Assembly (NCBI GenBank): GCA_036726225.1
Contig: DAIMCS010000001.1
Location: forward strand, 333,856-397,855
DNA length: 64,000 nucleotides
DNA from: Patescibacteria group bacterium
GTDB lineage: Bacteria > Patescibacteriota > Doudnabacteria > UBA920
Direction of reading: 5' to 3'
Positions 522-63,945 of the stretch are shown one piece after another; position 1 is the stretch's first letter; the number at the start of each line of letters is the position of its first letter. The notes under the pieces were generated by a model that had not been told where the DNA came from, searched no databases, and worked only from the letters and a program-made list of their open reading frames with translations. A program made the position numbers and the translations under genes.

Positions 522-849
522 TTAAAAAAATTGTCCTGTCCATTTGCGTATGGACAAAAATAATTAATATCTATCAGCCCGCCTTAAAAAGGTGGGTGAT
601 AATCTTTGGGCAGTGGCCTGCTCAGCCGACCGTCAACAAAGATTTGCTCGCAATTAGCAAATTGGAATTAGTGACAAGTAACAGGTGAAAGGTTACATGT
701 AACTAGCTGTAATTTGGTAACTGTTTTGGTTTCTTTGGGAAAACTTAACCTTACTTGTTCATTATACGCCTTTTGGGCTTTGTTGTCAACCCCGTTTTAT
801 GGAAACAGGCCCAAGTTGTTTACGATGCGCTTTATGAAGGAATAACTTT

Positions 850-1395: not shown

Positions 1396-1532
1396 AAAGG
1401 ATAAGTTTATTGAAAGAAAGTGCGGGACGCTATGCCAACCTGCCCCGTAGCAAATTGCGGAGCAATTTTGCTTCGGGGTTTCGCCACCGCGGCATATCTT
1501 ACATCTTAAATCTAAAACCTTAAATCTGCAAT

Positions 1533-7590: not shown

Positions 7591-9506
7591 GTCAACGAGA
7601 GTTTTATTTTTTCAGCAAGTTTTTTACCAACCACTAATGCGAGCTCTTCGGGCTTCGCATTTTTTATTTGCGCCACGGTTCCAAAATTTTTCTTAAGGAG
7701 TTTTTTGGTTTTGGGGCCAACGCCTGGTATTTCATCCAGTGCTGACTTTATGGCCTGTTTACTGCGTAACGATCTGTGAAAAGTTATGCCAAAACGGTGG
7801 GCTTCATCGCGCAAACGTTGCAATAGCTGCAGTGCGGGTTGATCGTGGGACAGGATTATAGGATCTGAATCGTGGGGAAGAAAAATTTCCTCAATTCTTT
7901 TTGCCAGGCCAATTATCCTTACAGTGCTAAGTGCTAAGTTATTAGTGCTAAGTACTTCCAAAGCTGTCGATAGCTGGCCTTTGCCGCCGTCGATTACAAT
8001 GAGATCAGGAAGCGGCCATTTATCAGATGTAGCGTGCCCATTCATGGGCGTCTCAGATCGCCGATAAATCGGCACGCTACGCATCAAACGCCGCGACAAC
8101 ATTTCTTTCATCATAAAAAAATCATCCGGAGTTTTTTTGCCCTGGATTTTAAATTTTCGGTATTCAGACTTAGCCGGCAAGCCGTCTACAAAGACCACCA
8201 TGCTTCCAACGGGGTTTGAGCCCTGAATGTTAGAAATGTCGTAGCATTCAATTCTTTTTGGAATTTTTTCTAAATTCAAAACCTCTTTTAGCTGTTCTAG
8301 CGCTTGGTTTATTTTAACCAAATGACCGGCGCGGGCAGAAAGCCAGTTTTTTAAGTGCTCTTCGGCATTGGTTTTGCCTAAAGTTATTAATTTAGCCGTT
8401 TTGCCCTTTTTAGGGGTTAGAATTTCAGTTTTGATGTGGAAGCGAGACTTAATTATTTCCTCTACCAAGGCGGCATTTAAGGCCGGCAATTGAGTATAAA
8501 TGCATTTAGGCGCGCTGGAAGTTTCTATATAGTACTGCTCTAGAAATCTTTGCAGTACACTTGATAGACCGAGGTCCGTCGAATTAATTTCGCGGACCGA
8601 GGAACCTTGGAAAGGGGAGTTTAGCTCATATACAAAATTTTCTTTGTCAAACATTTTACCTTCGCGGATTTTAAACAGGTTTATACAGGCAAAACCGTCA
8701 GAGCGGGCTTCGGAAATAAAATCCCAGTCCACCTTTTTCGGTAAAATTACGTTTTGTCTTTCCTGTAAAATTTCCAAAGACCGTAGCTGATCACGAAGTC
8801 TGGCTGCGGTTTCAAATTTCTTAGAGGCCGATGCTAAAGCCATCTCTGCCTTAATTTCTTTAACAACAGAAGTTATGTCTCCCTGCAGAAATTTAATAAT
8901 TTTATCTAATTGCAGCTGATATTCATCCGAAGTAATTTTACCAATGCAGACTCCCGGACAGCGGTGCATATAAAAGTAAAAACACGGACGGCTGGAAACT
9001 TTTTGCGCTGCGCAAAAAGGAAAAATTTTCCTGACTAAATTTAGAGTATTTTTAATTTTCCAGGCAGCGGAGTACGGCCCAAAGTATTTAATTTTAGACA
9101 TTGGATATTTGATATTGGATATTGTTTGGTTTTTGTTATTTGGTTCTTGAATCTTTCTGCTGTATCCAATCTGCGGAATTTGTGTGGAATAATCAATCGT
9201 AATAAACGCGTAATTTTTGTCGTCTTTTAAATCTATGTTGTATTTAGGAGTATATTGCTTGATAATTGTATTTTCCAAAAACGCACTTTCCAGTTCGTTG
9301 CTGACAACCGTGTAAGTAACATCAACGGCTTCGGCCATTAAAAATGGAATCTGCGGCCGTAGGTCATCGTGCCCAAAATACTGGCTGACCCGGGATTTTA
9401 AATTTTTAGCTTTGCCAACATATAAAACAGCGCCGTTTTTATCTAAAAATTGATAAACGCCGGGGGATTTTGGAATATTTTTTAGTTTTTCTAGCAGCGA
9501 TTGCAT
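7587..9506 (-). CDS. uvrC: excinuclease ABC subunit C (UvrC)
   Basis: N-terminal GIY-YIG domain (GVYQFLDKNGAVLYVGKAKNLKSRVSQYF). A C-terminal helix-hairpin-helix domain (ALDEIPGVGPKTKKLLKKNFG) supports the call. 639 aa. Confidence 0.9.
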   Translation of the reverse strand: MQSLLEKLKNIPKSPGVYQFLDKNGAVLYVGKAKNLKSRVSQYFGHDDLRPQIPFLMAEAVDVTYTVVSNELESAFLENTIIKQYTPKYNIDLKDDKNYAFITIDYSTQIPQIGYSRKIQEPNNKNQTISNIKYPMSKIKYFGPYSAAWKIKNTLNLVRKIFPFCAAQKVSSRPCFYFYMHRCPGVCIGKITSDEYQLQLDKIIKFLQGDITSVVKEIKAEMALASASKKFETAARLRDQLRSLEILQERQNVILPKKVDWDFISEARSDGFACINLFKIREGKMFDKENFVYELNSPFQGSSVREINSTDLGLSSVLQRFLEQYYIETSSAPKCIYTQLPALNAALVEEIIKSRFHIKTEILTPKKGKTAKLITLGKTNAEEHLKNWLSARAGHLVKINQALEQLKEVLNLEKIPKRIECYDISNIQGSNPVGSMVVFVDGLPAKSEYRKFKIQGKKTPDDFFMMKEMLSRRLMRSVPIYRRSETPMNGHATSDKWPLPDLIVIDGGKGQLSTALEVLSTNNLALSTVRIIGLAKRIEEIFLPHDSDPIILSHDQPALQLLQRLRDEAHRFGITFHRSLRSKQAIKSALDEIPGVGPKTKKLLKKNFGTVAQIKNAKPEELALVVGKKLAEKIKLSLT

Positions 9507-10060: not shown

Positions 10061-10193
10061 TTCGGGCTTAAAGCAGGTATTTCGCAGGTCTGGTATAAGA
10101 AAAAATACCAGTCTTGCGGGACACCGGCTTTTTTGTTTCCCTAGCTTCTTGACGTTATCTTGACTTCCGTGATAGACTGACAACCAGTTTGTG

Positions 10194-10288
10194 CCTACAG
10201 AACTACAAAATGGGGACACTACAGATAACTACAGAATTTTTGATCCTTTTGTAGTCATCCGTAGTGCATCTAATCTGTAGTTTTGTAG
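10194..10288 (+). promoter_or_regulatory. palindromic array of 4 CTACA(G/A) units followed by 4 (C/T)TGTAG units immediately upstream of uvrA; candidate operator
   Basis: Forward units at 10194, 10203, 10219 and 10229; reverse units at 10249, 10259, 10275 and 10283. The spacings are mirror-symmetric (9,16,10 against 10,16,8). The array ends 4 nt before the uvrA ATG. Confidence 0.35.
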
Positions 10289-10291
10289 TTT

Positions 10292-13144
10292 ATGAAAGAT
10301 ATTATTTCCATCCGCGGAGCGCGGCAGCACAATTTAAAAAACGTAGATTTAGATTTGCCCAGAAACAAGTTGATTGTAATGACCGGCCTGTCCGGCTCGG
10401 GCAAGTCGTCTTTGGCGTTTGATACAATCTACGCCGAAGGCCAGCGCAGGTACGTTGAATCTTTATCGGCTTATGCCCGCCAGTTTATAGGCCTTATGGA
10501 TAAGCCCGATGTAGATAAAATTGAGGGCTTATCGCCGGCAATTTCCATAGACCAAAAATCAGCTTCGCACAACCCCCGTTCCACTGTGGGCACAGTTACG
10601 GAAATTTATGATTATATGAGGCTGCTTTGGGCAAGAATTGGCATTCCGCACTGTCCGGTTTGCGGCAAAAAAATTGCCGGGCAAACTATTGCCGCCATGG
10701 TAACGCAGCTTTTAACTTTAAAAGTCGGCACGAAAATAGTTTTGCTTGCCCCGTTTATTAAAGACCAAAAAGGCGAGCATCGCGTTATTTTTGAGCAAAT
10801 TAAAAAGGCGGGTTTTGCGCGCGTAAGGGTAGACGGCACGGTTATGGACTTAAACGAAGCGCAAAATTTAAATTTAGATAAACAGAAAAAACATTCTATA
10901 GACGTGGTGGTTGACCGTTTGGCAATTGACCAGGCGGAAAAGGGCAGGCTTTCGGAAAGCTTGGAAAAAGCCCTTGATCTTGGTGATGGCATAGCCATGG
11001 CGGTAAAAATGAACGCGGACAATAAAACGGATGAACACGGACCGGATATTATTCTGTCGCAAAAATTTGCCTGCCCGGACGGCCATGTGCAACTCTCTGA
11101 ACTCGACCCGCGTGATTTTTCTTTTAACAGCCCACACGGCGCCTGCCCTGAATGTAAAGGTTTGGGAACCAAGCTTACCGTGGAGCCGGATTTGGTAATT
11201 CCAAATCAGAGGCTGACTTTAGCCGAAGGCGCAGTTAGGCCCTGGAGCAAAACCACATCCAGACTTTCCTGGTACAGTCGCATTATGCAGGCCGTGGCCA
11301 AGGAATACAATTTTTCTGTAAATACACCGGTAAAAGATCTGCCCAAAAAATATATAGATGTAATTTTATACGGCACGGGCGACAAAAAAGTTAAAGTTTC
11401 CGGCGAATTCCGCGGTGGCGACGGCGAGTTTGAAATGAACACCACTTTTGAGGGCGTAATTCCTAATTTAGAACGCCGCTATGGTGAGACTGACAGCGAA
11501 TATATGCGCACTGAAATAGAAAACTATATGCGCGTTCGCCAATGCCCGGCCTGCAAGGGTCAGCGACTTAAGCCCGAAGTTTTGGGCGTGCAAATAGGCG
11601 GCAAGGGGATTGTGGAAGTATCGGGAATGAATATTGAATCGGCGTCTAAGTTTTATAAAGATTTAAATTTAAACCAAAAAGATACTCTCATAGCCAAACA
11701 GGTGTTAAAAGAAATTAACGCCCGCTTATCTTTTTTACTTAATGTCGGCTTGTCTTATTTATCGCTCGACCGCGCAGCTGACACTCTCTCGGGCGGGGAA
11801 GCCCAGCGCATCCGCCTTGCAACGCAAATCGGCTCCGGGCTTACCGGCGTGCTCTATATATTAGACGAGCCTTCCATTGGCCTACACCAGCGCGACAACA
11901 CCAGACTGCTTCAGACCCTTAAAGAGCTGCGCGATTTAGGCAACACGGTAATTGTAGTAGAGCACGACGAAGAAACCATTCGCGAGGCGGATTGGGTGGT
12001 GGATATTGGTCCGGGTGCGGGCAAGCACGGCGGAGAATTGGTAGCCGAAGGCACGCCACAACAAATTCAAAAAAATTCTAAAAGCCAAACCGGACAGTAT
12101 TTGGCCGGCAAGGAGTTTATAGAAATTCCAAAACGCAGGCGCCCGGGCAACGGACGCAAGCTTTCTATTTTTGGCGCCGAGGAATTTAACCTTAAAGAAA
12201 TTGACGTAGACATTCCGCTTGGAAAATTTGTTTGCGTAACCGGAGTTTCGGGCAGCGGAAAATCAACGCTCTTCCACGACATTTTGGCCCGGGCGCTCTA
12301 TAAATATTTTTACAACAGCAAGGAAGAGCCGGGCAAGCACAAGAAAATTTTAGGCATTGACCATATAGACAAAATTATTAACATAGACCAGTCGCCCATT
12401 GGCCGTACCCCGCGTTCTAACCCCGCCACTTATACAGGCCTTTTTACACCTATCCGTGATTTGTTTGCCGAAACCAAGGAAGCCAAAATGCGGGGATATC
12501 AGGCCGGCCGGTTTAGCTTTAACGTTAAAGGCGGCAGATGTGAAAAGTGCGCGGGCGACGGGGTTATTAAAGTGGAAATGAATTTTTTGCCTGACGTTTA
12601 CATTACCTGCGAGGAATGTCACGGCAAACGCTACAACCAACAGGCTTTGGAAATTCACTTTAAAGACAAAACCATTTCCGACGTGTTGGAAATGACTGTA
12701 GATGAAGCTAAAATCTTTTTTGCTTCCCTGCCTGCCATCCACAAAAAGTTAGAAACACTTTCTCAAGTGGGTTTGGGTTATATGCGTTTAGGACAAAACG
12801 CCACCACTCTTTCCGGCGGAGAAGCGCAAAGAATTAAATTGGCTACGGAACTTTCTCGCGCATCAACCGGCCGTACGCTTTATTTATTGGACGAGCCGAC
12901 AACCGGACTTCATTTTGCCGACACCAAACGTTTAATTAGTGTTCTTAACAAACTGGTAGACAAAGGAAACACCGTCGTGGTTATTGAACATAACTTGGAT
13001 ATGATAAAAACCGCTGACTGGATAATTGACCTGGGCCCGGAAGGCGGGGATAAGGGCGGTACCTTGGTTGCCCAAGGCACGCCGGAAGACATTGTTAAAG
13101 TAAAAAGTTCCTACACGGGACAATATCTGAAGAAAGTATTATAG
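10292..13144 (+). CDS. uvrA: excinuclease ABC subunit A (UvrA)
   Basis: 950 aa with two ABC ATPase modules ([22 protein letters not shown], two LSGGEAQR signatures). Zinc-finger CxxC pairs are present. Confidence 0.95.
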
Positions 13145-18080: not shown

Positions 18081-19724
18081 ATGAAAAAGTTTTTTTATCT
18101 TCTGGGCACAAGCTTGTTATTTTTTGCTTTGCCCCTTTTAGCTTTTGCAGAAGAGCCGGTAGCCCAAATTAAAATAATTTCAAAACCCCAAAGCATTGCT
18201 ACATCCACGCCTTCTTCTGTTTTTACCGTTGAAGCTCAGGACGCTTTGGGCAACAAGGTGGATGTGGCAACCACCACGCGCGTAAATCTCAGCGCAGATT
18301 CGGCAACCGGCCAGTTTTTAACAGCTTCGGCGAGCGTATGCAATACCGCAACGACTAGTAGTGTAACAATTGCCAACGGCAGTTCGCACAAAAGTTTTTG
18401 TTATATAGACGAAAGTCCGGGAAGTTTTACACTGACCCTTTCTGTAATTGACCAGCCTTCTGTGCTGGGTGATTCGCAAATAATTGTAATTTTAGGAGAA
18501 GAACCTGCGCCTACCCCTACGCCTACGCCGAGTCCCGAACCTGTACCGACTACCACGCCAAAAAGTTTATTGGTAAAAATTTACAGGTTTTTGCCTAATC
18601 CGCCCGGGGAAGATTCGGGCAACGAGTGGGTGGAAATTAAAAATTCCGACGAAAATCCGGTATCTTTGGACGGTTGGTTTTTGGATGACGAAGGTATGGA
18701 GCCGGGTAGTAGCGCTTTTGTTTTATCAGGCGAAATATTGCCGGGCGAGATTAAACGGATTATTTTACCCGTCGGCAGCTTTGCACTTAACAATAGCAGC
18801 GGGGATGAAGTGAATTTATATTTTAATGACAAATCAATTGCCCATAAGGTCGTATATGAGGCCACGGCTTACGATGACGGCATATTTGAATTAATTGACG
18901 GGGTTTGGCAGCCGCCCCCACAGCCTTCACCCGGAGGCGGTGGGGGCGGCGGAAGCAGTCAAACCCCGTCTGGCGGGGGCCCTAAAAGCCAATCATCGAC
19001 AGCAACCACTACAGCCGTGGCCTTGAATATTATAATTAGCGAAATTTATCCAAGACCTTTGGAAGGCGGAGAGGAATTTTTAGAGTTGTATAATGTTGCC
19101 ACGAGCACGGCCAACTTGCAGGGGGCCGTATTGCAAATTGGTAACAGGAAAAAAGTTTTTGAAAAAGGCGCAAAAATTGAGCCGGAAAAATATTTTGTAA
19201 TTTATGAAGACGACTTGCCCGTGCGTTTGTCCAACAACGGCCAAACAATTAAATTTTACGACTCTTCCGGCAAACTGCTGGCTCAAATTTTATATCCCAA
19301 AGCAGAGGAAGGCCACGCTTATGGAAGCGATGACGGCAAAACTTATGCCTGGACTAGCACCGTAACTGCCGGCGACAGCAATTTTTATGTACTGTCTGAA
19401 GCCGTGGAAGAAAAAGAATCAGCTAAAGATGAAAAACCTAAAACCACCGCATCCAAATCTACATCATCCGGCATTACTTCATCCCAAGCCAAAGCAATTT
19501 TGAAAACAAATGAGGATCTAAAATTACAAATTTCTGTATTACAGGAATCTATAAACCAGTTAGCGCTAAAATTAGATAATCTTCAAACTCAAAAAACGCC
19601 GGCACAGGCTATCGGACCGCCAGCTCCCACCTCTTTAAAAAAGGGGAGAATTTTAGTGTGGCCAACAGCTATTATAGTTTTAAGCGGTATAGTTTATACG
19701 ATTTTTAGAAAGCCAAAAGATTAA
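18081..19724 (+). CDS. secreted, C-terminally anchored protein with two lamin-tail domains (LTD) and a coiled-coil stalk
   Basis: Signal peptide MKKFFYLLGTSLLFFALPLLAFA. LTD motifs IYRFLPNPPGEDSGNEWVEIKNSDENPVSLDGWFLDDEG and IISEIYPRPLEGGEEFLELYNVATSTANLQGAVLQ. Coiled coil LKLQISVLQESINQLALKLDNLQ. C-terminal transmembrane helix. Confidence 0.7.
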   Translation: MKKFFYLLGTSLLFFALPLLAFAEEPVAQIKIISKPQSIATSTPSSVFTVEAQDALGNKVDVATTTRVNLSADSATGQFLTASASVCNTATTSSVTIANGSSHKSFCYIDESPGSFTLTLSVIDQPSVLGDSQIIVILGEEPAPTPTPTPSPEPVPTTTPKSLLVKIYRFLPNPPGEDSGNEWVEIKNSDENPVSLDGWFLDDEGMEPGSSAFVLSGEILPGEIKRIILPVGSFALNNSSGDEVNLYFNDKSIAHKVVYEATAYDDGIFELIDGVWQPPPQPSPGGGGGGGSSQTPSGGGPKSQSSTATTTAVALNIIISEIYPRPLEGGEEFLELYNVATSTANLQGAVLQIGNRKKVFEKGAKIEPEKYFVIYEDDLPVRLSNNGQTIKFYDSSGKLLAQILYPKAEEGHAYGSDDGKTYAWTSTVTAGDSNFYVLSEAVEEKESAKDEKPKTTASKSTSSGITSSQAKAILKTNEDLKLQISVLQESINQLALKLDNLQTQKTPAQAIGPPAPTSLKKGRILVWPTAIIVLSGIVYTIFRKPKD

Positions 19725-19762: not shown

Positions 19763-19796
19763 TTATCACTTGACAGGTTAGAGTGATAATAGTATT
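19763..19796 (+). promoter_or_regulatory. CIRCE-like HrcA operator (TTATCACTT-N9-GAGTGATAA) embedded in a TTGACA-N17-TATTAT promoter
   Basis: The inverted repeat at 19763-19789 differs from the CIRCE consensus TTAGCACTC-N9-GAGTGCTAA by one symmetric substitution. The -35 TTGACA is at 19768-19773 and the -10 TATTAT at 19791-19796. It lies directly upstream of hrcA. Confidence 0.65.
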
Positions 19797-20642: not shown

Positions 20643-21176
20643 ATGGAAGAAGACAATCAGCAAAGCAATGCAACATCATCGGAAGTTTCTTTAGACCAAC
20701 TCCAACAGGATTTTGAAAACGCGATGAATAACTGGAAGAGGACCGCGGCAGATTTTGAAAACTACAAAAAGCGCAAAGAAGCGGAAAACAAAGAATTAGT
20801 CGAGTTTGCCAGGGAAGTAACAGTTGCTAAGCTTTTGCCAACATTGGATAGCTTGGGGCAAGCGTTAAAGCACATTCCTCAGAATACAGTAAACAGTACA
20901 CAGCAAACAGAATTTGAGAAACAATTTCAGAATTGGCAAATGGGCATTAATGGAATTTTACTACAATTAGATAAAACTTTAGGGGAACTGGGAGTAAAAA
21001 AGATTGAAGCAGTTGGGAAAAAGTTTGACCCGCATTTCCATGAAGCTATTAGGGAAGCGGAGAGCGAGCAGGATGACGGAATTATTATCGAAGAACTGCA
21101 AAGCGGGTTTGAACTAAACGGGAAAGTTATAAGGCCAAGTCAGGTGATTATCTCCAAAAAGAAAACCGGCGGTTAG
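20643..21176 (+). CDS. grpE: nucleotide exchange factor GrpE
   Basis: GrpE motifs KRKEAENKELVEFAREVTVAKLLPTLDSLGQAL and KKFDPHFHEAIREAES are present. Confidence 0.9.
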   Translation: MEEDNQQSNATSSEVSLDQLQQDFENAMNNWKRTAADFENYKKRKEAENKELVEFAREVTVAKLLPTLDSLGQALKHIPQNTVNSTQQTEFEKQFQNWQMGINGILLQLDKTLGELGVKKIEAVGKKFDPHFHEAIREAESEQDDGIIIEELQSGFELNGKVIRPSQVIISKKKTGG

Positions 21177-22537: not shown

Positions 22538-24412
22538 ATGCCAAAAATTATAGGAATAGACTTAGGAACATCTAACAGTGCCGCATCCGTAATGGAAGCG
22601 GGCAAGCCGGTAATTATTCCGGCGGCAGAAGGTGCATCGCTCGGGGGTAAAGCTTTCCCGTCTTACGTAGCCTTTACCAAAGAAGGCCAGCTTTTGGTTG
22701 GGGAACCGGCAAGGCGCCAGGCTGTAACTAACCCCGAAGGCACCATTTACGAAGCCAAAAGAAAAATGGGAACTAAAGAGAAATTTACTGTGGCCGGAAA
22801 AGAATATACTCCGGAACAAATTTCCGCGTTTATCCTCCAAAAAATTAAAAAAGATTCAGAAACCTTTTTAGGCGGCCCGGTTACTAAAGCGGTAATTACA
22901 GTACCGGCTTATTTTGACGACAGTCAAAGACAGGCAACCAAGAACGCCGGCGAAATTGCAGGCCTTGAAGTTGTTCGCGTAATTAACGAGCCAACGGCCG
23001 CGGCTTTTGCTTATGGTTTGGATAAAACGGGCAAAGACCAAAAGATTTTAGTTTTTGACCTTGGTGGCGGTACTTTGGATGTTACCATAATGGATTTTGG
23101 CGAACACGAAGGCCAGGCAACTTTTGAAGTGCTTTCCACCTCGGGCGACACAGCCTTGGGCGGTAAGGATATGGACAAGGCTTTGATAGATTATTTAACC
23201 ACATCTTTTAAGAGCGAAAGCGGCGTGGATGTTTCGGGCGACAAAATGGCTATGAACCGCGTTAGGGAAGCTGCGGAAAAAGCTAAAATTGAACTTTCCA
23301 CCACTTTGGAAACTGACCTTAACCTTCCGTTCATTACAGCCGATGCCAACGGCCCAAAGCATTTCCAAATAAAAATTACCCGGGCCAAGCTTGAGGAATT
23401 AATAAAACCGATAGTAGACAGAATGAAGCACCCGCTACAGCAGGCTTTAACTGACGCTAAGCTCACCCCGGCTAACATTGATAAGATTATTCTAGTCGGC
23501 GGACCAACCCGTATGCCTGCGGTTAAAGGATTTGTAGAGCAGTATGTGGGCAAGCAGGTAGAAGGCGGCATTGACCCAATGGAAGCCGTGGCCAAAGGCG
23601 CGGCCATCCAGGCCGGAATTTTGGGCGGCGACGTGCAGGGCAAAGAAATTTTGCTGCTCGACGTTACGCCGCTTACTTTGGGACTTGAAACTTTGGGCGG
23701 CGTTCGCACACCGCTTATTGACCGTAATACCACCATTCCGACATCTAAATCCCAAACATTTTCTACTGCGGCTGACAACCAGACATCGGTAGAAATTCAC
23801 GTTATGCAGGGTGAGCGCGAGTTTGCCACAGACAACAAGTCTTTGGGCAGGTTTATTTTAGACGGCATCCCGCCGGCGCCAAGAGGCATTCCCCAGGTTG
23901 AGGTTACTTTTGACATTGACGCTAATGGTATACTTACAGTTAAGGCAAAAGACAAAGCCACTAACAAAGAGAGCAAAATTACCATTCAGGGTTCTTCCAA
24001 CTTAAACAAAGATGAAATTGAAAGGATGAAAAAAGAAGCTGAAGCGCATGCAGAAGAGGATCGTAAGCGGAAAGAAACCGTGGACGTGCGAAACCAGGCC
24101 GATACTTTAATAAGCGTTAGTGAAAAAACCTTAAAAGACGGCGGCGACAAAGTGAAGGCAGAAGACAAGACAGAAGTTGAAGCTAAAATTAAAGCTTTAA
24201 AAGACATTAAGGACAAAGACGACGTAACTGCCATAAAGAAAGCTGTAGATGAGCTTTCTGCGGCAATCCAAAAGGTGGGCGCGGCTATGTACCAGGCTAG
24301 CGGATCAGCGGATCAGCAGTCAGCGAATCAGCCGGGTGAGAATTCAGGCGGACCAAAGCCGGAGGAAAAAGGACCTGTGGATGCAGAATTTAAAGAAGTC
24401 CCCAAACAATAA
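22538..24412 (+). CDS. dnaK: molecular chaperone DnaK (Hsp70)
   Basis: [37 protein letters not shown] and the C-terminal lid with a KK-rich tail. 624 aa. Confidence 0.95.
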
Positions 24413-25242: not shown

Positions 25243-25536
25243 ATGGAACACAATCAGCAGCAGCAACAAATCCAAATAAAGGCGACAGATGAGGTTTTAA
25301 AAGGGCTGTATGCAAATATGGTGCAAGCAGGCCACACCGGTGAAGAGTTTATTTTGGATTTTATGAATGTTATGCCGCCGCAGGGCAGCCTGGTGGCCAG
25401 GGTAATTGTTTCGCCTCCCCACGCTAAGCGCCTTTGTGCAGCTTTGCAGGAAAACATTAAGCGCTACGAAGAAAAATTTGGAACAATAAGTTTGGCGGTG
25501 GTGCCTGACCAGAAGATTGGATTTAAAACAGAGTAG
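25243..25536 (+). CDS. hypothetical protein (DUF3467-like)
   Basis: Reads IQIKATDEVLKGLYANMVQAGHTGEEFILDFMNVMPP...VARVIVSPPHAKRLCAALQENIKRYEEKFG. The pattern is recalled from the DUF3467 family, not verified. Confidence 0.45.
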   Translation: MEHNQQQQQIQIKATDEVLKGLYANMVQAGHTGEEFILDFMNVMPPQGSLVARVIVSPPHAKRLCAALQENIKRYEEKFGTISLAVVPDQKIGFKTE

Positions 25537-25605
25537 TGACAAGTTACAGGTGAAAGGTGACAAGGTATTTGTCACTTGCAACTTGTTACCTGCCACTTAT
25601 TTTTT

Positions 25606-26745
25606 ATGGCTCAAGATTACTACAACATTTTAGGCGTCTCTAAGTCTGCATCGGCGGATGATATTAAACGCGCCTTCCGCAAAAAAGCGCACGAGTTTCA
25701 CCCGGACAAAGGCAATGGCAATGCGGAAAAGTTTAAAGAGGTTAACGAAGCCTACCAAGTCCTCTCCGACTCTGCCAAACGTTCGCAGTACGACCAGTAC
25801 GGCACCACTTTTGACCAGGCTCAAAGAAACGGCGGAGCCGGTTTTGGCGGTGGTAATCCTTTTGGCGGGGGCTTTGACTTTGGCCAGGGCGGAGTGGAGT
25901 TTGATTTAGGCGATATTTTTGGAGATATATTCGGCGGCAGGCAACAGCGCAGCGAGCGCAGGAACCGCGGTATAGATTTAGAAATGGGAATGGAGCTTAA
26001 CTTTGAAGAAGCCGTATTTGGAGTGGAAAAACAAATTGCTTTAGAAAAACAGGATGCCTGTAAAACCTGTTCGGGTAACGGGGCGGCACCGGGAGCTAAA
26101 ATTGTTACCTGCCCTAAATGTCACGGCCAGGGGCAAATTCGGACCACCAGGCGGACAATTTTTGGTAACATAGCGTCCAGCGCTTCGTGCGACCGCTGCC
26201 AAGGTATGGGCAAAATTCCGGAAACCGCCTGTAAGACTTGCGGGGGCAGCGGGATTTTAAGGCAAGAAAAAACTATTTTAGTCAAAGTGCCTGCCGGCAT
26301 AGACGACGGTCAGAGAATTAAAATTTCCGGTGAGGGTGAAGCCGGCTATAGGGGCTCGGGGGCCGGGGATTTATTTTTGGCCGTAAAAGTTATGCCCCAT
26401 AAAGAATTTAAGCGCGACGGCTTTAATTTATATTTCGAACTGCCTGTAAGTTTTACCCAAGCGGCTTTGGGTGCAAAACTTATGGTTAAAACTTTAGACG
26501 GTGACATTGAGCTTAAAATTCCTTCCGGCACCCAAGCCGGAGCGCAGTTTAGGATAAAAAGCAAAGGTGTGCCTTACATAAACAATCCAAAATCCCGCGG
26601 CGATTTAATAATTACCGCACGGGTGGTTGTGCCTAAAAAACTTTCTAAAAATGAAAAACAGCTGCTCAAGCAGCTGGCAGACGAGAGAGGGGAGAGTGTC
26701 GAAATTGACCAAAGCCTGTGGGAAAATATAAAAGATAGTTTTTAA
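25606..26745 (+). CDS. dnaJ: molecular chaperone DnaJ (type I). Start taken at MAQDYY; the ORF track extends 10 codons upstream
   Basis: J-domain [32 protein letters not shown], a G/F-rich region and four CxxCxGxG repeats ([32 protein letters not shown]). Confidence 0.9.
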
Positions 26746-29719: not shown

Positions 29720-30607
29720 TTATTTAACCTGCCATCTGGCAAAAATTCCCGTTGAAATCATCCGGGAATTTTTTTGTTTAAGACAGAGTTCCCCAAACTC
29801 AACCTTACCCGGTTTTGATTGTAAGGCATCGGCCAGTAAATTATTTAAGGCTAAAGCCGAAGAATTGGTGGCGTAACCGTTTATGATAAGAAATTTTGCT
29901 TCTTCCGAAAGAAGCTGAACGCAATCGTTTAAAAGCCCCGGTAAGTCATCATTAAATTTCCAGGTTTTGCCCGTGGGGGAGTGGCCAAAAGCCGGCGGGT
30001 CCATAATTATTCCGTCATATTTTGCGCCGCGTTTAACCTCACGTTTAACAAATTTTACGCAGTCATCCAAAATCCACCTTACGGAATCTGCCGGTAAATT
30101 ATTTAATTTATGATTTTCATTCGCCCAGGTAATAGCGGGCTTGCTGGCATCCACGTGCGTTACTATACATCCTGCCTTAGCCAGTACCATTGTCGCGCCG
30201 CCGGTATACGCAAAAAGGTTTAGGATTTTTAACTTGTCACTTGTCACTTTTAACTTGTCACTCATAAACTCCCACTGCGCGGCTTGTTCAGCAAATAGGC
30301 CTGTGTGTTTGAAAGGAGAGAGTTTGAGAGAAAATTTAACGTTATCGAAAACTACCATCCACGGCCGTGGCATTGGCTTTTTAATTTCCCAGTTTCCGCG
30401 TTCTTCCGTGTTAGATTCCGCGTGCTTTCCGCGACTTCTATAAACTGCCCAGGCTTTGTCCCATTGAGCATCGGGCAAAGATTTTTCCCAGATAATTTGC
30501 GGGTCCGGGCGCTGTAAAATAACATCACCCCATCGCTCAAGGCGAAAGCCCGATCCCGTGTCTAAAAGTTCAAAATCCCCAAAATCTTTAAAAGTTTCCA
30601 GCAGCAT
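29720..30607 (-). CDS. class I SAM-dependent rRNA methyltransferase (RlmI/YccW-like) carrying an in-frame tandem 21-nt insertion
   Basis: LNLFAYTGGATMVLAKAGC (SAM-binding motif I region) and GIIMDPPAFG (the DPPxF motif IV) are present. The segment AQWEFMSDKLKVTSDKLKILNLF has about 7 residues more than the corresponding E. coli RlmI segment (recalled from memory). Confidence 0.7.
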   Translation of the reverse strand: MLLETFKDFGDFELLDTGSGFRLERWGDVILQRPDPQIIWEKSLPDAQWDKAWAVYRSRGKHAESNTEERGNWEIKKPMPRPWMVVFDNVKFSLKLSPFKHTGLFAEQAAQWEFMSDKLKVTSDKLKILNLFAYTGGATMVLAKAGCIVTHVDASKPAITWANENHKLNNLPADSVRWILDDCVKFVKREVKRGAKYDGIIMDPPAFGHSPTGKTWKFNDDLPGLLNDCVQLLSEEAKFLIINGYATNSSALALNNLLADALQSKPGKVEFGELCLKQKNSRMISTGIFARWQVK

Positions 30608-31331: not shown

Positions 31332-31450
31332 TTGTTTATCTCTCCCTTTTTTGCCCTGTACCAGTCAGCTGCGCTTTCCGGTACAGGGCATAAACCACTC
31401 GCCTAACTATGTTTATGGCTGTGCCATAAACCCGAGCGAAGCGAGTGGTT

Positions 31451-31528
31451 TATGGTGGGATGGGAGGGGATCGAACCCTCGACAAACGGCTTAAAAGGCC
31501 GCTGCTCTACCAACTGAGCTACCATCCC
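31451..31528 (-). tRNA. tRNA-Lys (anticodon UUU), CCA encoded; apparently 2 nt longer than canonical between the D and anticodon arms
   Basis: Reverse complement reads GGGATGGTAGCTCAGTTGGTAGAGCAGCGCGGCCTTTTAAGCCGTTTGTCGAGGGTTCGATCCCCTCCCATCCCACCA. The acceptor, D and T arms are canonical and the anticodon loop is CTTTTAA. Confidence 0.7.
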
Positions 31529-31866
31529 GCGTCGTCGCAACAAGCTTCAGGCTTTCGGAATTAACTTAAGTTAATTCCTTACGCCTTTCGCTGTTGCTCC
31601 TCTTCCTCAAAAACGCGTGCTCGTCCCGACATGTCGGGACTGCGCTACTCGTTTTTGAGGGTTGATTAACTAGTGCCTTCCGGCAAGTGGGCCTTATCCC
31701 ACTTTTCCCTTTGGTAAAATTGGGAACCCTGCTAACATTTTATCCCAACACCGCCTTCAGCATTTTTGGGAGTCTGGTGTGGCCTTAATCAAAGTCTATG
31801 ATATTTTACAATATTCGACTGATTTTTTCAATAGCGCTTAGTATTATCCACATTCATTTGAAAATA

Positions 31867-52302: not shown

Positions 52303-52357
52303 GCCCCTTCATCCCAAAAACGCGTGCTCTCCCGACTAAAGTCGGGATGCGCTCCAC
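52303..52357 (+). repeat. conserved ~55-nt hairpin element (A-run, GC hairpin containing TCCCGAC/GTCGGGA, T-run), member of a tRNA-associated family
   Basis: TCCCAAAAACGCGTGCTCTCCCGACtaaaGTCGGGATGCGCTCCACGTTTTTGGGA. It is clearly homologous to 31605-31660. Confidence 0.6.
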
Positions 52358-52406
52358 GTTTTTGGGAGCCCAGATTTAAAAATAAATTTCTAAAGAACTT
52401 GTTATT

Positions 52407-52525: not shown

Positions 52526-52602
52526 GGGCATTTAGCTCAGCTGGTTAGAGCGTTGCATTCACATTGCAAAGGTCGCAGGTTCGATTCCTGCAATGCCCAC
52601 CA
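52526..52602 (+). tRNA. tRNA-Val (anticodon CAC), CCA encoded
   Basis: GGGCATTTAGCTCAGCTGGTTAGAGCGTTGCATTCACATTGCAAAGGTCGCAGGTTCGATTCCTGCAATGCCCACCA is a canonical cloverleaf. Confidence 0.85.
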
Positions 52603-52803: not shown

Positions 52804-53424
52804 ATGGAGAATGAAGACAAAAATTTACAAGCAACAGTTGCCCCAAACTCCCAAAGCCAAAGCGTGGGAGCATTTGTCTGGGACTTGGTTAAAATTTTAG
52901 TAATTGCCATTGCAATCATTTGGCCGTTTAGAACTTTTGTGGCTGAACCCTTTGTAGTTTCCGGGTCTTCTATGCTGCCAAATTTCCATAATCACGATTA
53001 CTTAATAATAGACCGCCTCTCTTACAGGTTAGGGGAGCCTTCAAGAGGCGATGTAGTGGTCTTGAGGTTTCCAAAAGACGAAACCCAATATTTTATAAAA
53101 AGAATTATTGGACTGCCAAACGAAAAAGTATGTTTCTCGCCCACCTGCGACGGCCAAGACGGGCACGTGTATATTTTTAACCAGCAGCACCCCGAAGGCC
53201 TAAAGCTTTCAGAGTCCTATTTAACCGAACTGACCTATCCTTACGCAGACGTTTCGGGCAGAATTTTAGCAGACAACGAATTTTATGTGTTGGGTGACAA
53301 CAGGGACGCAAGCTCTGACTCCCGCACCTGGGGCATTTTGCCTAAAAGCGATATTGTCGGCAAAGTTTGGAGCAGGGTGTATCCATTTTCAAAAGCAGAA
53401 TTTTTTAAAACCCCAACGTATTAA
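52804..53424 (+). CDS. lepB: signal peptidase I (bacterial type, S26A)
   Basis: SGSSMLPNF Ser box, KRIIGLPNEKV, and the VLGDNRDASSDSRTWG box. It has an N-terminal transmembrane helix. Confidence 0.85.
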   Translation: MENEDKNLQATVAPNSQSQSVGAFVWDLVKILVIAIAIIWPFRTFVAEPFVVSGSSMLPNFHNHDYLIIDRLSYRLGEPSRGDVVVLRFPKDETQYFIKRIIGLPNEKVCFSPTCDGQDGHVYIFNQQHPEGLKLSESYLTELTYPYADVSGRILADNEFYVLGDNRDASSDSRTWGILPKSDIVGKVWSRVYPFSKAEFFKTPTY

Positions 53425-53429
53425 TTGAG

Positions 53430-53490
53430 CAAGATTGACCATGATTGATCAAGAATGACAAGATTGGAAAAAATCATGTCAATCATTCCT
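53430..53490 (+). repeat. copy 1 of a ~60-nt promoter-like repeat composed of tandem 10-bp units
   Basis: cAAGATTGACC ATGATTGATC AAGAATGACA AGATTGgaaaaaat... The first 37 nt are identical to 54852-54888. Confidence 0.6.
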
Positions 53491-53537
53491 GCCTGCCGGC
53501 AGGCAGGTAAATCTTACTTAATCTTGTAAATTCCTTT

Positions 53538-54839
53538 ATGGGCAGGCCAAAAAAAAACTCAAATCTCCAAGTCAGTACAGCCCCGCTTAAAAAAATCCAA
53601 AGCCTTTTAGGATTGGAAGACATAGTACCGGAGTCCGAAAGCCTTTGGCCGGTATTGCTAAAGAGGCTTTCCCGGCTTTCCAGGGTTTATGGTTTTGAAA
53701 GAGTGGAAACTCCGCTTTTGGAAGATGCCCGGCTTTACGAAAGTTTCTATAAGCAGGATGCAACAAAATTTAGCCGTACTTTAAGACTGCCCTTACCCAA
53801 AGCCGAAGCAGTTGTCAGGAGCGACTTTTTGCCCGGAATATTGAGGGCTTACCATCAAAACAAAATTTACGAAAAATTTCCGCTTTCCAAATGGTTTTTT
53901 GGCGGTTTTGTTGTCAGTGAAGATGAAGAAAAAAATTTGGTCTCTGACTACCAGTTTGGTCTGGAAGTTTTTGGCGGTTTTGACCATTTAACCGAAGCCC
54001 AGGCCGTTGGCGCGGTATGGGAATTTTTAAACGCCTTGGGGCTTAAAGATTTAGTTTTGGAAATAAACCACGTGGGCCAGGACGAATGCCAGCTGGCGTA
54101 TCAGGAAACTTTGCGCGACTTCCTTTCACCTAAAAAATTCCAGCTCTGCGACAACTGCAACGAACATTTGCAGGGCAGGACCCTAAATGTGCTGCGCTGC
54201 GAAAATTTAGACTGCCAAGCCCTGCTTGCCGACGCCCCCGCGGTTTTAGATTTTTTGGACGAGACGTCTAAAAAACATTTTACAAATATTTTGGAAGCGT
54301 TAGACGAGTTGGGCATCCCTTACCAGTTAAACCCGCTTTACGCAGGTCCCACGGGCCATGGCAAAACTAACGTGGTCATAAAGGCAAAACTTAAAGGCGT
54401 AAATGTGGTGGTGGGCGAGGGCGGGTATCATGAAAGTTTAATGCAAAATTTGTGCGGCAAAAATTATTGCTGCTTTGGTTTTATTTCCAGCCTGTCTAAA
54501 ATTAAAACTTTGCTTGAGGCAAGTAAAATTACAGTCAGCAGGGAGCAAAAAAGCGAAGTCTTTTTAGTTCCCCTGGGCGACTTGGCCGCAAAAAAAGCTT
54601 TAAGACTGTTTAGGGACCTGGCTTTTGAAAAAATTTCAGTCTACGACCATTTTGGCAACGCCGGAGTAAAAAACCAACTCAAAGCAGCAGAGACCTTTCA
54701 GGCGCCAATTGCCCTAATTATGGGACAAAAGGAAGCGGTGGATGAAATGGTCATACTGCGCGACGTTAAAAGCGGTATGCAGGAAATTATTTCCTATGAT
54801 AAAATAGTGCAGGAAGTAAAGAAAAGGCTTGGGAGATAG
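53538..54839 (+). CDS. hisS: histidyl-tRNA synthetase-like protein (class II aaRS HisS/HisZ family) with a divergent catalytic core
   Basis: ...LRCENLDCQALLADAPAVLDFLDETSKKHFTNILEALDELGIPYQLNPL parallels E. coli HisRS [53 protein letters not shown]. It has a C-terminal anticodon-binding-like domain. The motif-2 and motif-3 regions (GEGGYHESL) are degenerate relative to canonical HisRS. Confidence 0.55.
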   Translation: MGRPKKNSNLQVSTAPLKKIQSLLGLEDIVPESESLWPVLLKRLSRLSRVYGFERVETPLLEDARLYESFYKQDATKFSRTLRLPLPKAEAVVRSDFLPGILRAYHQNKIYEKFPLSKWFFGGFVVSEDEEKNLVSDYQFGLEVFGGFDHLTEAQAVGAVWEFLNALGLKDLVLEINHVGQDECQLAYQETLRDFLSPKKFQLCDNCNEHLQGRTLNVLRCENLDCQALLADAPAVLDFLDETSKKHFTNILEALDELGIPYQLNPLYAGPTGHGKTNVVIKAKLKGVNVVVGEGGYHESLMQNLCGKNYCCFGFISSLSKIKTLLEASKITVSREQKSEVFLVPLGDLAAKKALRLFRDLAFEKISVYDHFGNAGVKNQLKAAETFQAPIALIMGQKEAVDEMVILRDVKSGMQEIISYDKIVQEVKKRLGR

Positions 54840-54851
54840 CTTGAATATTGA

Positions 54852-54915
54852 CAAGATTGACCATGATTGATCAAGAATGACAAGATTGTAGGAAAAAATT
54901 GTGTTCAATCAAATT
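54852..54915 (+). repeat. copy 2 of the ~60-nt tandem-decamer repeat, upstream of the HIT gene
   Basis: cAAGATTGACCATGATTGATCAAGAATGACAAGATTGtaggaaaaaatt... About 85 percent identity to copy 1 over about 60 nt. Confidence 0.6.
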
Positions 54916-55252: not shown

Positions 55253-55400
55253 TTTTACGAATTACGAATTTTTTACGAACGTTGTCATCGATTTTTGTAA
55301 GTTCGTGCCTTTAGTACTTAGTAAAGCTAATGGTTTGCCAAAGTTAAATATATTATGTTATAATCACCCCATCTAAAAGAAAGGGGTGAATTTTTTCTTT

Positions 55401-56185: not shown

Positions 56186-56192
56186 AGAATAC

Positions 56193-56290
56193 ATCGAATC
56201 TGCGAATTAAGACGAATTAACGAATAACTACGAATGCAGCATTCGTAAATTCGCAGACCTTCGTAGATTCGTTCCATTCGTTGATTCGAT
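56193..56290 (+). promoter_or_regulatory. nested palindromes and tandem CGAAT/ATTCG units upstream of ftsA
   Basis: Inner palindrome TACGAATGCaGCATTCGTA (56229-56247). Outer palindrome CTGCGAATT...AATTCGCAG (56200-56256). Tandem cgaattaaga/cgaattaacg/aataactacg units. TACGAAT is also present twice at 55258-55272. Confidence 0.4.
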
Positions 56291-56296
56291 ATATTT

Positions 56297-57544
56297 ATGG
56301 CTAAAGAAAGTTATATTGTAGGGCTCGATGTCGGCACCTCCAGCGTTCGGGTGGTGCAGGCTAAGCTTCAGGCTCAAAGCAATGAGTTTAGCGTGATTGG
56401 CGCAAGCGAAGTTGCAAGCGTCGGCCTTAGGCGTGGGGTGATTGTTGACATTGAGGAGGCGGTGTCTTCTATTTCCAGCGCTTTGGAAAAACTCGAGCGT
56501 ATGACAGGCGTGCCGGTTTCTTCCGCCAATGTTTCTGTTTCGGGAAGCCATGTGTCATCTATTTCTTCTCACGGCGTAATTGCCGTATCCCGGGCTGACG
56601 GGGAAATTACGGAAAATGATATTGTCCGCTGTATAGATGCCAGCCAGGCCATTTCCATCCCGCAAAACAAAGAAGTTCTGCACGTCTTTCCCAAAACTTT
56701 TACGCTCGACGGCCAAACCGGCATTAAAGACCCGCTGGGTATGAGCGGCATCCGTTTGGAAGTGGATACCATAATTGTGCAGGCCGGCCTGCCGTTTGTA
56801 AAAAATCTTACCCGCGCCATTGCACAGGCGGGTTTGGAAATAGACGAGCTGGTTTTAGCGCCGGCTGCGGCAGGTGAAGCTGTATTAAGCAAGCGGCAAA
56901 AAGACTTGGGCGTGTGCGTTGTGGATTTGGGCGCCGGCACCACAGGCTTGGCCATTTATGAAGAAGGTGACCTTCTCCATACTTCGGTTTTGCCGGTGGG
57001 CCAAAGCCACATTACCAACGACATTGCCATTGGGCTTAGGTGCTCAATTGAAACCGCGGAAAAAATAAAACTGCAATTCGGCCACTGCGAGCCCAAGGCA
57101 GTGGAAAAAAACCAGGAAATAGATTTGTCTAAAATTGACAGCACCGAAGAAGAATCTACCACGCGCGGTTATGTGGTGGAAATTATAGAAGCGCGCCTGG
57201 AAGAAATTTTCAATCTCATAAACGGCGAACTAAAAAAAATCCAGCGTGACGGCAAACTGCCTTCCGGCATAGTGCTAACCGGCGGGGGAGCCAACCTTCC
57301 CGGGGTGGTGGATTTTTCCAAAAAACATTTGCGCCTGCCTTCTTCTTTGGGCCTTCCCCAAAATATGAGCGCCATTGTCGACCGTGTCCATGACCCAAGC
57401 TTTGCTACGGCTGTTGGCTTAACCCTTTGGGGCGGCAAATTCTCCGGCGGCAAAAGCGCGGGTTTTTCGGGCGCGTTAAAAAATATAATGTCCAACCAAA
57501 CCGTAGCCAAAGTGCGCAAGTGGTTTAAATCGTTCCTTCCTTAG
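56297..57544 (+). CDS. ftsA: cell division protein FtsA (actin-like ATPase)
   Basis: YIVGLDVGTSSVRVV, an actin-fold phosphate-binding loop context, and a C-terminal amphipathic tail. 415 aa. Confidence 0.75.
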   Translation: MAKESYIVGLDVGTSSVRVVQAKLQAQSNEFSVIGASEVASVGLRRGVIVDIEEAVSSISSALEKLERMTGVPVSSANVSVSGSHVSSISSHGVIAVSRADGEITENDIVRCIDASQAISIPQNKEVLHVFPKTFTLDGQTGIKDPLGMSGIRLEVDTIIVQAGLPFVKNLTRAIAQAGLEIDELVLAPAAAGEAVLSKRQKDLGVCVVDLGAGTTGLAIYEEGDLLHTSVLPVGQSHITNDIAIGLRCSIETAEKIKLQFGHCEPKAVEKNQEIDLSKIDSTEEESTTRGYVVEIIEARLEEIFNLINGELKKIQRDGKLPSGIVLTGGGANLPGVVDFSKKHLRLPSSLGLPQNMSAIVDRVHDPSFATAVGLTLWGGKFSGGKSAGFSGALKNIMSNQTVAKVRKWFKSFLP

Positions 57545-63734: not shown

Positions 63735-63945
63735 TCCTAATTTAATACTATAAAATTGATTGCTTGTGGTGAGCAAAAACCCTGTAAATTCCTGTCCAAG
63801 GTCCCATTTTTGGAGCTTTAGACAGGCACCACAATTTACAGGGTTTTATGTTCACCGGAAGAAATTCTTGGTGGATATCCCGCGTGTGGTGCGCGGGATT
63901 ATGGAAAATTTAGATCTTTGACATCCCAAAAGGAGGGTAAGTCAA
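63735..63945 (+). ncRNA. structured ~210-nt 5' leader (candidate cis-regulatory RNA) between the consensus promoter and the next CDS
   Basis: A 14-bp long-range stem AAACCCTGTAAATT...AATTTACAGGGTTT encloses a CCTGTC/GACAGG helix. A second hairpin ATCCCGCGtgtggtgCGCGGGAT follows. GGTGG...CCGCG is reminiscent of, but does not match, the T-box motif. The Shine-Dalgarno AAGGAGGG is at 63930-63937. Confidence 0.35.

Follow-up and report, generated by a model that had tools for sequence, protein, structure and literature searches.

Cyanobacteria have been known since 1990 to carry heptanucleotide repeat families that are each restricted to a single genome, and such families were described later in Xanthomonas and the Beggiatoaceae. 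Here, a stretch of 64,000 nucleotides (nt) from a Patescibacteria group bacterium of the Doudnabacteria lineage was analyzed (contig DAIMCS010000001.1, positions 333,856 to 397,855; hereafter, the window), in which a 24-nt motif lies next to rnj and dnaJ, and its core recurs inside a methyltransferase gene. The motif is part of degenerate heptamer arrays, simple-sequence repeats of a type already known from bacteria, met here in a host lineage new for them. In many bacteria, heptamers outnumber all other long simple-sequence repeats, and polymerase slippage was proposed for their general excess by Mrazek in 2007, as that study is cited in two later papers (PMC4692102, PMC4679880). Described families include GGGAATC in Xanthomonas, GGGGA(C/T)T in Nostoc, the STRR of Calothrix and TAACTGA in the Beggiatoaceae; one unit occupies 100-200 dispersed loci per genome, and how these families spread remains unexplained (PMC4692102, PMC4679880).

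The arrays of the window resemble these families in their 7-nt unit, their heterogeneity and their typical size of ~4 units. In the described families, one unit is found at many places of a genome; in both cases, the arrays are mostly intergenic, some are inverted pairs able to form stem-loops, and related genomes have arrays between the same genes, with differing length and sequence. The TAACTGA arrays of the Beggiatoaceae precede start codons by a few nucleotides and are now and then found in frame within open reading frames (ORFs), a further likeness. The window differs, however, in its host, a Patescibacterium, and in the coexistence of several unit families of 7-10 nt. Moreover, homologous modules hold the order of their four units while the unit length changes, and in-frame arrays occur in conserved housekeeping enzymes at the canonical protein length. 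The family of the motif itself (consensus RGTKAMA) was seen at three sites in 83 kb. No report of such heptamer families in Patescibacteria was found in the literature.

Stem-loops inside operons can set differential expression, as does the one between dnaK and dnaJ in the dnaK operon of Bacillus subtilis, and also the malE-malF REP. The B. subtilis case is similar in having a stable stem-loop in an hrcA-grpE-dnaK-...-dnaJ operon, just upstream of dnaJ. The hairpin of the window, on the contrary, is built of tandem units and is missing in several relatives. Rickettsia palindromic elements (RPE), attributed to Ogata et al. in 2000, are said to be in-frame insertions of ~100-150 bp that add residues to their host proteins. 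Both cases involve repeat DNA tolerated in frame in surface segments of conserved proteins, but the methyltransferase array of the window adds no residues. The REP, BIME and REPIN elements of Enterobacteria and Pseudomonas are short imperfect palindromes with many dispersed copies in intercistronic or 3' operon spacers, for which roles in mRNA stabilization and attenuation have been proposed (PMC3116915, PMC2817692, PMC3733652). REPs are G+C-rich palindromes of 20-40 nt that end in GTAG or CGTC and are mobilized by RAYT transposases (PMC3116915, PMC2817692, PMC3733652), whereas the arms found here are A+T-rich tandem arrays without a conserved tag, the sequence of which varies by spacer.

Heptamer arrays near rnj, dnaJ and within a methyltransferase gene

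A preliminary description of the window had reported near-identical 24-mers at 670-693 (AGTGACAAGTAACAGGTGAAAGGT, site 1) and 25535-25558 (AGTGACAAGTTACAGGTGAAAGGT, site 2), and both are present: two matches compare with 0.00 expected from shuffled sequences, none of which contained such a pair. The identity extends past the 24-mer, to 26/28 nt (670-697 vs. 25535-25562). A shorter core, the 12-mer AGTGACAAGTTA, occurs on the minus (coding) strand of the methyltransferase gene (site 3) at 30230-30241 and again at 30251-30262, and a copy with one mismatch spans 30237-30248. Allowing up to one mismatch, the window holds five matches to this 12-mer against 0.27 expected in shuffles, so that the earlier judgment of a non-random recurrence holds. 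The two exact copies within the gene had been described as standing in tandem; they exist, but they are 21 nt apart inside a five-unit array and do not form a simple tandem duplication.

The period is seven at all three sites, each a run of four to five degenerate heptamers (AGTGACA, AGTWACA, GGTGAAA, AGTTAAA). Site 1 is a solo array of four units on the plus strand (670-697; AGTGACA AGTAACA GGTGAAA GGTTACA) in the divergent spacer between rnj and ORF 850. Site 2 has four units in its left arm (25535-25562; AGTGACA AGTTACA GGTGAAA GGTGACA) and an inverted four in its right arm (25569-25597; reverse complement AGTGGCA GGTAACA AGTTGCA AGTGACA), and site 3 has five on the minus strand (30228-30262; AGTGACA AGTTAAA AGTGACA AGTGACA AGTTAAA). 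The 24-mer is four consecutive units of a degenerate heptanucleotide array and not a discrete 24-nt site. TRF recovered period-7 arrays at 25536-25566 and 30232-30262, together with five made of other units (from 1496, 7923, 9100, 20886 and 55255). By autocorrelation, period 7 forms three clusters in the window, and each other period from 5 to 11 forms none or one.

The pattern (RGTDAMA)x3 matches in the window at the three sites only, with seven overlapping matches against 0.00 expected. It has no further match in the 82.7 kb available from the source genome (the window with its assembled flanks), and none in any of 80 loci from other organisms. Likewise, the 22-mer core of the motif is absent from viral contigs and from all loci outside the source genome. 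In a metagenome scan with (RGTDAMA)x4, the 24-mer was found in none of the matches listed (at least 120 stretches), all of which were generic heptamer arrays on unrelated contigs with a GC content of 21-68%.

Site 2 spans the spacer between the DUF3467 gene (25243-25536) and dnaJ: it starts within the TAG stop codon of the former, and its array ends 9 nt before the dnaJ ATG at 25606. The upstream-of-dnaJ copy had been recognized as half of an imperfect palindrome of ~60 nt, and folding bears this out. The 72 nt at 25531-25602 on the plus strand reach -25.5 kcal/mol (z = -3.7), and none of 200 shuffles folds as well. The stem is long, imperfect and rich in A+U, with UUAUUUUUU after it, and a scan for the intrinsic-terminator consensus gave no call there; TTATTTTTT separates the hairpin from the dnaJ ATG. 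The site is internal to an operon of the order hrcA-grpE-(small ORFs)-dnaK-peptidase-DUF3467-dnaJ.

Synteny of the dnaJ region is kept in relatives, and the spacer could be compared among several loci (designated L followed by a number). In L008, inverted CGTTTAG arrays form a hairpin of 77 nt (-34.8 kcal/mol, z = -6.7), and L007 has one of 9-10-nt units (ATTGACAAG ATTGACATG ATTGAGCAAG AATGACAAG; -31.7 kcal/mol, z = -4.1), the unit family of which is also found in the L213 hairpin (-23.4 kcal/mol). The hairpins of L210 and L216 are built of ATCTWTA units (-21.6 kcal/mol, z = -2.9) and CGGAT units (-36.0 kcal/mol), respectively. In L017, arms of CTATAAG-type units flank an inserted small gene, which sets them ~400 nt apart (18251-18719); judging from the translation, its product may be a small four-helix-bundle protein of the 23S rRNA intervening-sequence type. 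With hairpins of differing units in some relatives and a bare spacer in others, the dnaJ hairpin is dispensable and its sequence free to change. Elsewhere in the same operon, the spacer downstream of grpE in L216 (19481-19509, minus strand) holds GGTGACG GGTGACT AGTGACA GGTCACG, units of the window's family.

Site 3 encodes SDKLKVTSDKLK, residues 116-127 of a 295-amino-acid (aa) PF10672 (RlmI-like) methyltransferase (gene 29720-30607, minus strand). Its homologues belong to Patescibacteria, with names including Candidatus Doudnabacteria, and the best relatives in the genome collection searched are 74-75% identical. The segment had been taken for an insertion of about seven residues, perhaps of a repeat that had invaded the coding region without breaking the frame, for which an alignment with orthologues was proposed as a check. 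This alignment gives a different picture. The spacing from a conserved W to (I/V)LNLF is 15 aa in the window, and the same spacing (xWMIDKIxxxxRxIK) is found in nearly all of the ~50 orthologues from Paenibacillus and Clostridia examined. The segment also aligns without gaps to the solved structure PDB 2igt; hence, nothing has been inserted, and the protein has its canonical length.

In closer relatives, this spot is a hot spot of length variation, ranging from 10 to ~45 residues, and the peptides found there (KLKVKSEKLK, KISNFKFQISNE and RVMNYESRIMNE among them) are translations of arrays. The underlying DNA was read in six genomes. L216 carries the unit family of the window over 15 aa (AAGCTAA AAGTGAA AAGTGAA AAGTTAA AAGTG, KLKVKSEKLK being encoded by AAGTGAA AAGTGAA AAGTTAA), and L212 has AAGTTAC AAGTGAC AAGTAAC GAGTTAC, which holds GTGACAAGTAAC, the 12-mer of site 1. 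The others have four copies each of TTATGAA (L210), AAATTTC (L213), AAGCTAA (L017) and AATTAAG (L009). Since heptamer arrays are confirmed at the DNA level in these relatives, the array at this spot is old in the clade. Together with the canonical length, the presence of this heptamer family in relatives refutes the idea that a coding region was invaded by an in-frame insertion. At site 3, both units that would give an in-frame TGA are AGTTAAA and not AGTGACA, which we read as a sign that selection against stop codons shapes the array.

A second class of coding insert is present in the clade. At the same hot spot, L018 (2185-2352), L019 (10337-10495) and L021 (10313-10450) carry large, G+C-rich, in-frame inserts, and similar inserts occur at other indel hot spots of the methyltransferase (alignment columns ~115-140, 172-200 and 420-470). 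Within the window, G+C-rich palindromic stretches lie inside coding regions at 8029-8080 (uvrC) and 18897-18970 (a gene with an LTD domain). These G+C-rich coding inserts resemble in-frame palindromic elements of the RPE kind; those of L018, L019 and L021 are a closer analogue of RPE than the array of the window.

Site 1 is flanked by rnj, on the minus strand with its ATG at 521, and by ORF 850-1194. A weak, degenerate inverted partner can be read at 735-760 on the minus strand (reverse complement AATGAACAAGTAAGGTTAAG), and the minimum-free-energy structure pairs 669-685 with 745-762, at an energy no better than that of shuffles; neither strand of 660-770 folds significantly (z = -0.5 and -0.2). 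A sigma-70-like promoter is predicted at 761-789 on the minus strand from its consensus match (TTGACA-17-TATAAT, 12/12). The rnj transcript predicted from 789-761 would have a leader of ~233 nt that holds the reverse complement of the motif. Immediately before the ATG, this leader has a hairpin with a T-run (559-534), and in three relatives (L207 1-402, L208 2755-3000, L209 2713-3000), the leaders measure ~185-345 nt and have a small hairpin close to the start. The 5' region of rnj may be a cis-regulatory leader of RNase J. No RGTKAMA array was found upstream of rnj in L207-L209, and the alignment of the four leaders yields a consensus stem of 4 bp only.

Modules of longer units and lineage-specific unit families

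A second kind of module, with units of 9-10 nt, flanks hisS. An array hairpin at 53424-53530 (plus strand) fills the spacer that runs from the stop of an S26 peptidase gene to the hisS ATG at 53538 (-37.3 kcal/mol, z = -3.8), and its left arm (53424-53466) consists of the units ATTGAGCAAG ATTGACCATG ATTGATCAAG AATGACAAG. Between the hisS stop (54839) and the ATG of a HIT-family gene (54917), a second copy of the four-unit module is found at 54847-54888 on the plus strand. The two copies are identical over 37/37 nt (53430-53466 vs. 54852-54888). This module also matches the dnaJ spacer of L007 (6069-6108) at 39/41 nt (95%), in a genome whose proteins are 68-74% identical.

The consensus of the module is ATTGACAAG ATTGAC(C)ATG ATTGAKCAAG AATGACAAG. 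Copies in relatives lie in L007 (6069-6108, 6506-6547 and 630-674) and L213 (2622-2733, 4956-4994 and 17178-17218), and nhmmer retrieved at least nine copies across three genomes, in ~95 kb. In L213, GATTGACAA is expanded perfectly to 12.4 copies. Unit by unit, the left arm of site 2 aligns with the L007 module (AGTGACAAG-TT-ACAGG--TGA--AAG-GTGACAAG), with a score of 33 against 14 +/- 3.9 for shuffled sequences (p about 5e-4), and it matches the module of L213 and hisS as well. This alignment indicates that the 24-mer is a short-unit version of an older four-unit module.

Two more hairpins of the window abut start codons: one in the yqeY-ftsA spacer (56186-56296, plus strand, up to the ATG at 56297; units ACGAATNN / ATTCGNN; -38.2 kcal/mol, z = -5.9) and one before uvrA (10191-10291, plus strand, ATG at 10292; CTACARAA / TTYTGTAG; -39.3 kcal/mol, z = -5.9). 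The uvrA, hisS and ftsA hairpins are inverted arrays of 8-10-nt units, each with a separate unit family; a small array of TTACGAA x2.3 at 55255-55270 (plus strand) belongs to that of the ftsA hairpin. In the spacer between two FtsX genes, comparable hairpins are present in L210, L213 and L216 and absent from the window. One more intergenic array, ATCTTAA x4.6, lies at 1496-1527 (plus strand) between the stop of an SBP_bac_5 gene and a tRNA-Leu.

In-frame arrays are not limited to the methyltransferase. The uvrC gene has two on the minus strand. The one at 7923-7953 (plus-strand AGTGCTA x4.4, encoding VLSTNNLALST) leaves the length unchanged relative to orthologues, and the one at 9100-9124 (ATTGGAT x3.6, TISNIKYPM) is part of a 15-aa insertion when compared with orthologues from Clostridia. 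In grpE, ACAGTAA x3.6 at 20886-20910 (plus strand, TVNSTQQTE) falls in a loop whose length varies, L007 having an insert of 35 aa there. The C-terminal tail of dnaK (24299-24332) also contains an in-frame array, the period being 7 or 8 among the arrays of housekeeping genes. Further period-7 arrays of the source genome lie outside the window, at -5446 to -5416 in window coordinates (L214 3705-3735, AGTGATT-type) and at 72024-72051 (L215 19270-19297, CAGTGAA-type). Over the 82.7 kb, AGTG occurs in 6 of ~11 period-7 arrays, for which we estimate ~5% with random units; beside the three RGTKAMA sites, three further arrays contain AGTG.

The preference for period 7 extends beyond the window. Loci labeled as Patescibacteria contain 42 period-7 arrays in 425 kb, compared to 17 in 952 kb from other bacteria (about 5-fold enriched), where periods 9, 6 and 10 dominate; in the window, 6/12 arrays with at least three copies have period 7. 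Units at a distance of one or less make up 21% of the pairs within a locus and 8% of those between loci (Fisher p = 0.001; 0.0002 without the window). Unit families tend to be peculiar to a genome, such as AATNAAG in L009, CTAYAAG in L017, AATATCT in L039 and GATTGACAA in L213. Within a genome, the methyltransferase hot spot shares 8-mers with the dnaJ spacer far more than it does across genomes (diagonal 21 vs. a permutation mean of 4.6, p = 5e-4; p = 0.0035 without the window), and this genome-specific sharing shows separately in four or five genomes. Between species, both places undergo extensive turnover of length and unit.

Origin of the arrays and competing explanations

The motif is best explained as belonging to repeat families of short period (7-10 nt) that are specific to the lineage, in a Doudnabacteria-like genome of the Patescibacteria, with an origin in slippage and copying, an explanation to which we give a probability of roughly 0.7. 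The arrays occupy three settings: as inverted-pair hairpins in stop-to-start spacers (dnaJ, hisS, ftsA, uvrA), solo in leaders or spacers (rnj/ORF 850; upstream of the HIT-family gene) and in frame where housekeeping proteins tolerate changes in length (methyltransferase, UvrC, GrpE). Units would be amplified and homogenized by replication slippage or unequal exchange, and whole multi-unit modules would be copied between sites. Such copying is suggested by the shared order of variant units (26/28 nt for sites 1 and 2, 37/37 for the hisS copies and 39/41 against L007). If the spacer-filling hairpins have a function, the most economical one would be that of intercistronic stem-loops on the polycistronic mRNA, a weaker part of the explanation. 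They might block exonucleases, serve as processing sites, partially terminate transcription or shield the next start codon and would in this way set the relative expression of adjacent cistrons, e.g., dnaK vs. dnaJ.

Several observations weigh against this explanation. The arrays are imperfect, making slippage inefficient, and no copy-number variation was found: sites 2 and 3 are unchanged in all contigs with the identical methyltransferase, which belong to the same strain (L001-L006, at least 99.98% identical). A phase-variation locus was considered and rejected on the same grounds, the arrays being imperfect and invariant among the contigs compared. Paralogous sites keep the same order of variant units, as do genomes with ~70% protein identity, which is not predicted by free slippage and argues for copying or constraint. 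Only three RGTKAMA sites occur in the 82.7 kb of the source genome, and the k-mer and unit-distance tests control only partly for genome-specific oligonucleotide bias, their pairs being non-independent. As for a role at the RNA level, the dnaJ spacer of L009, L012, L013, L018, L211 and L212 is 6-40 nt long without a hairpin, and a U-tract comes after the hairpin in the window only, being absent in L007 and L008. The module at 54847-54888 has no significant fold, and a hairpin at site 1 was rejected because the site folds no better than shuffles.

Of the three origins first considered for the motif, a slippage-prone sequence comes closest, a REP-like element agrees in placement and hairpin potential, and a regulator binding site is not supported. 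A miniature, non-autonomous mobile element (REP/REPIN/MITE- or SDR-like), in which a module of ~30-40 nt with four sub-repeats and usually an inverted partner is copied into spacers between genes by an enzyme of the host or of the element, is unlikely, though the likeliest of the alternatives; the heptamer period would then be internal structure and not the mode of origin. It would account for the variant-unit order common to distant sites (26/28 and 37/37), for the 41-nt module that is 95% identical at a non-orthologous site of L007 despite protein identities of 68-74%, for the nine or more copies in ~95 kb of three genomes, and for hairpins placed between cistrons like REP and BIME. Against it, the arrays have no defined ends or target-site duplications but begin in stop codons and grade into their flanks, and orthologous spacers with quite different units look like turnover in place. 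Within homologous modules, unit length also varies between 7 and 9-10 nt, and the perfect 12-unit expansion of L213 is ordinary tandem amplification. REP and REPIN traits are poorly matched, as only site 2 of the three is palindromic, the arms vary between hairpins and a common end tag is missing; no transposase, RAYT included, turned up, although no systematic search (e.g., with PF01797) was made. At gathering score, Rfam 15 finds two tRNAs in the window and nothing at the sites.

An operator through which a DNA-binding regulator would co-control rnj, dnaJ and possibly the methyltransferase, e.g., in a stress regulon, is very improbable. Near-identical 24-mers do precede two genes, including a heat-shock gene, and by our own reading, the units resemble TTGACA-type or response-regulator direct repeats. 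Yet the hrcA-grpE-dnaK-dnaJ operon has its own CIRCE-like inverted repeat, TTATCACTTGACAGGTTAGAGTGATAA (TTATCACT-N11-AGTGATAA), at 19763-19789, 16 nt upstream of hrcA (19805), which is probably its HrcA operator, and the dnaJ copy of the motif is internal to the operon and starts in a stop codon, while the third copy is coding. The motif shares with CIRCE an inverted repeat tied to the dnaK/dnaJ operon, but it has the opposite arrangement of arms, and these have a period of 7. The CIRCE pattern TTAGCACTC-N9-GAGTGCTAA, with up to three mismatches, matches at 19763-19789 only and at none of the three sites. The CtsR direct repeat RGTCAAA-NAN-RGTCAAA (up to two mismatches) is equally absent from them, its total count being at the chance level; the comparison with operators once suggested for the motif gives no match to these two patterns. 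In addition, relatives lack the motif upstream of rnj and have unrelated units or nothing at dnaJ, and the 7-nt spacing is not helically phased. A phased DNA site is not compatible with the shift of this spacing to 9-10 nt from one homologous copy to another.

Still less probable is pairing in trans between the rnj leader, which would carry the reverse complement of the motif, and the 5' arm of the dnaJ hairpin as well as the methyltransferase mRNA, whereby RNase J expression would be linked to both transcripts. The perfect consensus promoter is oriented to transcribe the motif antisense, and the leader is complementary to the dnaJ arm over 23/24 nt. Such complementarity is automatic within one repeat family, however, the array is missing from the rnj leaders of relatives, and the idea is purely inferential. 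A chance or compositional coincidence is excluded by the shuffled sequences: beyond the small copy number, nothing speaks for it, and the counts (two 24-mers vs. 0.00, five 12-mers vs. 0.27 and seven three-unit matches vs. 0.00 expected) speak against it.

Two resemblances to CIRCE exist at the level of half-sites. The CIRCE-like half-site AGTGATAA is one base off the heptamer-array core AGTGACAA, and the uvrC array AGTGCTAAGTGCTAAG includes the canonical half-site AGTGCTAA.

Neighboring features and implications for the lineage

The window also has other structures. A nested-hairpin element of ~55 nt, CCCAAAAACGCGTGCTC...TCCCGAC..GTCGGGA..GCGCT..CGTTTTTGGG, occurs in two copies (31603-31662 and 52311-52368) without an Rfam match, ~75-160 nt from the genes of tRNA-Lys (31453-31528) and tRNA-Val (52526-52602). 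In a sliding fold corrected for GC content, the most stable local structures are 31351-31460 (z = -6.7), which abuts tRNA-Lys, and 63761-63870 (z = -6.0). The contigs L005 (1-282) and L006 (1-283) diverge from the window at ~31476, in or next to tRNA-Lys, the strains being otherwise identical, which suggests a strain-level rearrangement or an integration at the tRNA gene; L006 (2112-3114) also diverges after 29648. A Shine-Dalgarno-like motif, even a weak one, precedes only 12/43 gene starts of the window, most starts being preceded by A/T-rich sequence (TTTATG, AAAATG), and the organism probably initiates translation largely without such pairing. With so few genes having the motif, its absence was dismissed as a special trait of the hairpin-preceded genes.

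A bolder possibility, offered tentatively and considered improbable, is that the arrays are a clade-specific, actively propagated element combining array and hairpin, in which a four-unit module of the TGACAAG type is copied between intercistronic spacers and trades units with coding arrays at constant protein length. The module is ~95% identical between genomes with ~70% protein identity. Were this reading true, it would imply either that copying has a machinery of its own (templated repair, a recombinase, a reverse transcriptase) or that there is a conserved RNA-binding partner, which would act at start-proximal hairpins of housekeeping genes (dnaJ, hisS, ftsA, uvrA and the rnj leader).

At arrays of this kind, protein length is especially variable. 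Such arrays can lead to frameshift miscalls in metagenome-assembled genomes, and operators or insertions may be read into them by mistake. With unit families shared by spacer hairpins and coding arrays, and with the unit order kept, slippage, gene conversion and templated copying become testable. Patescibacteria have tiny genomes with few repair or mobile-element genes; the presence of heptamer arrays in such a genome therefore narrows the search for the mechanism by which these repeats spread.

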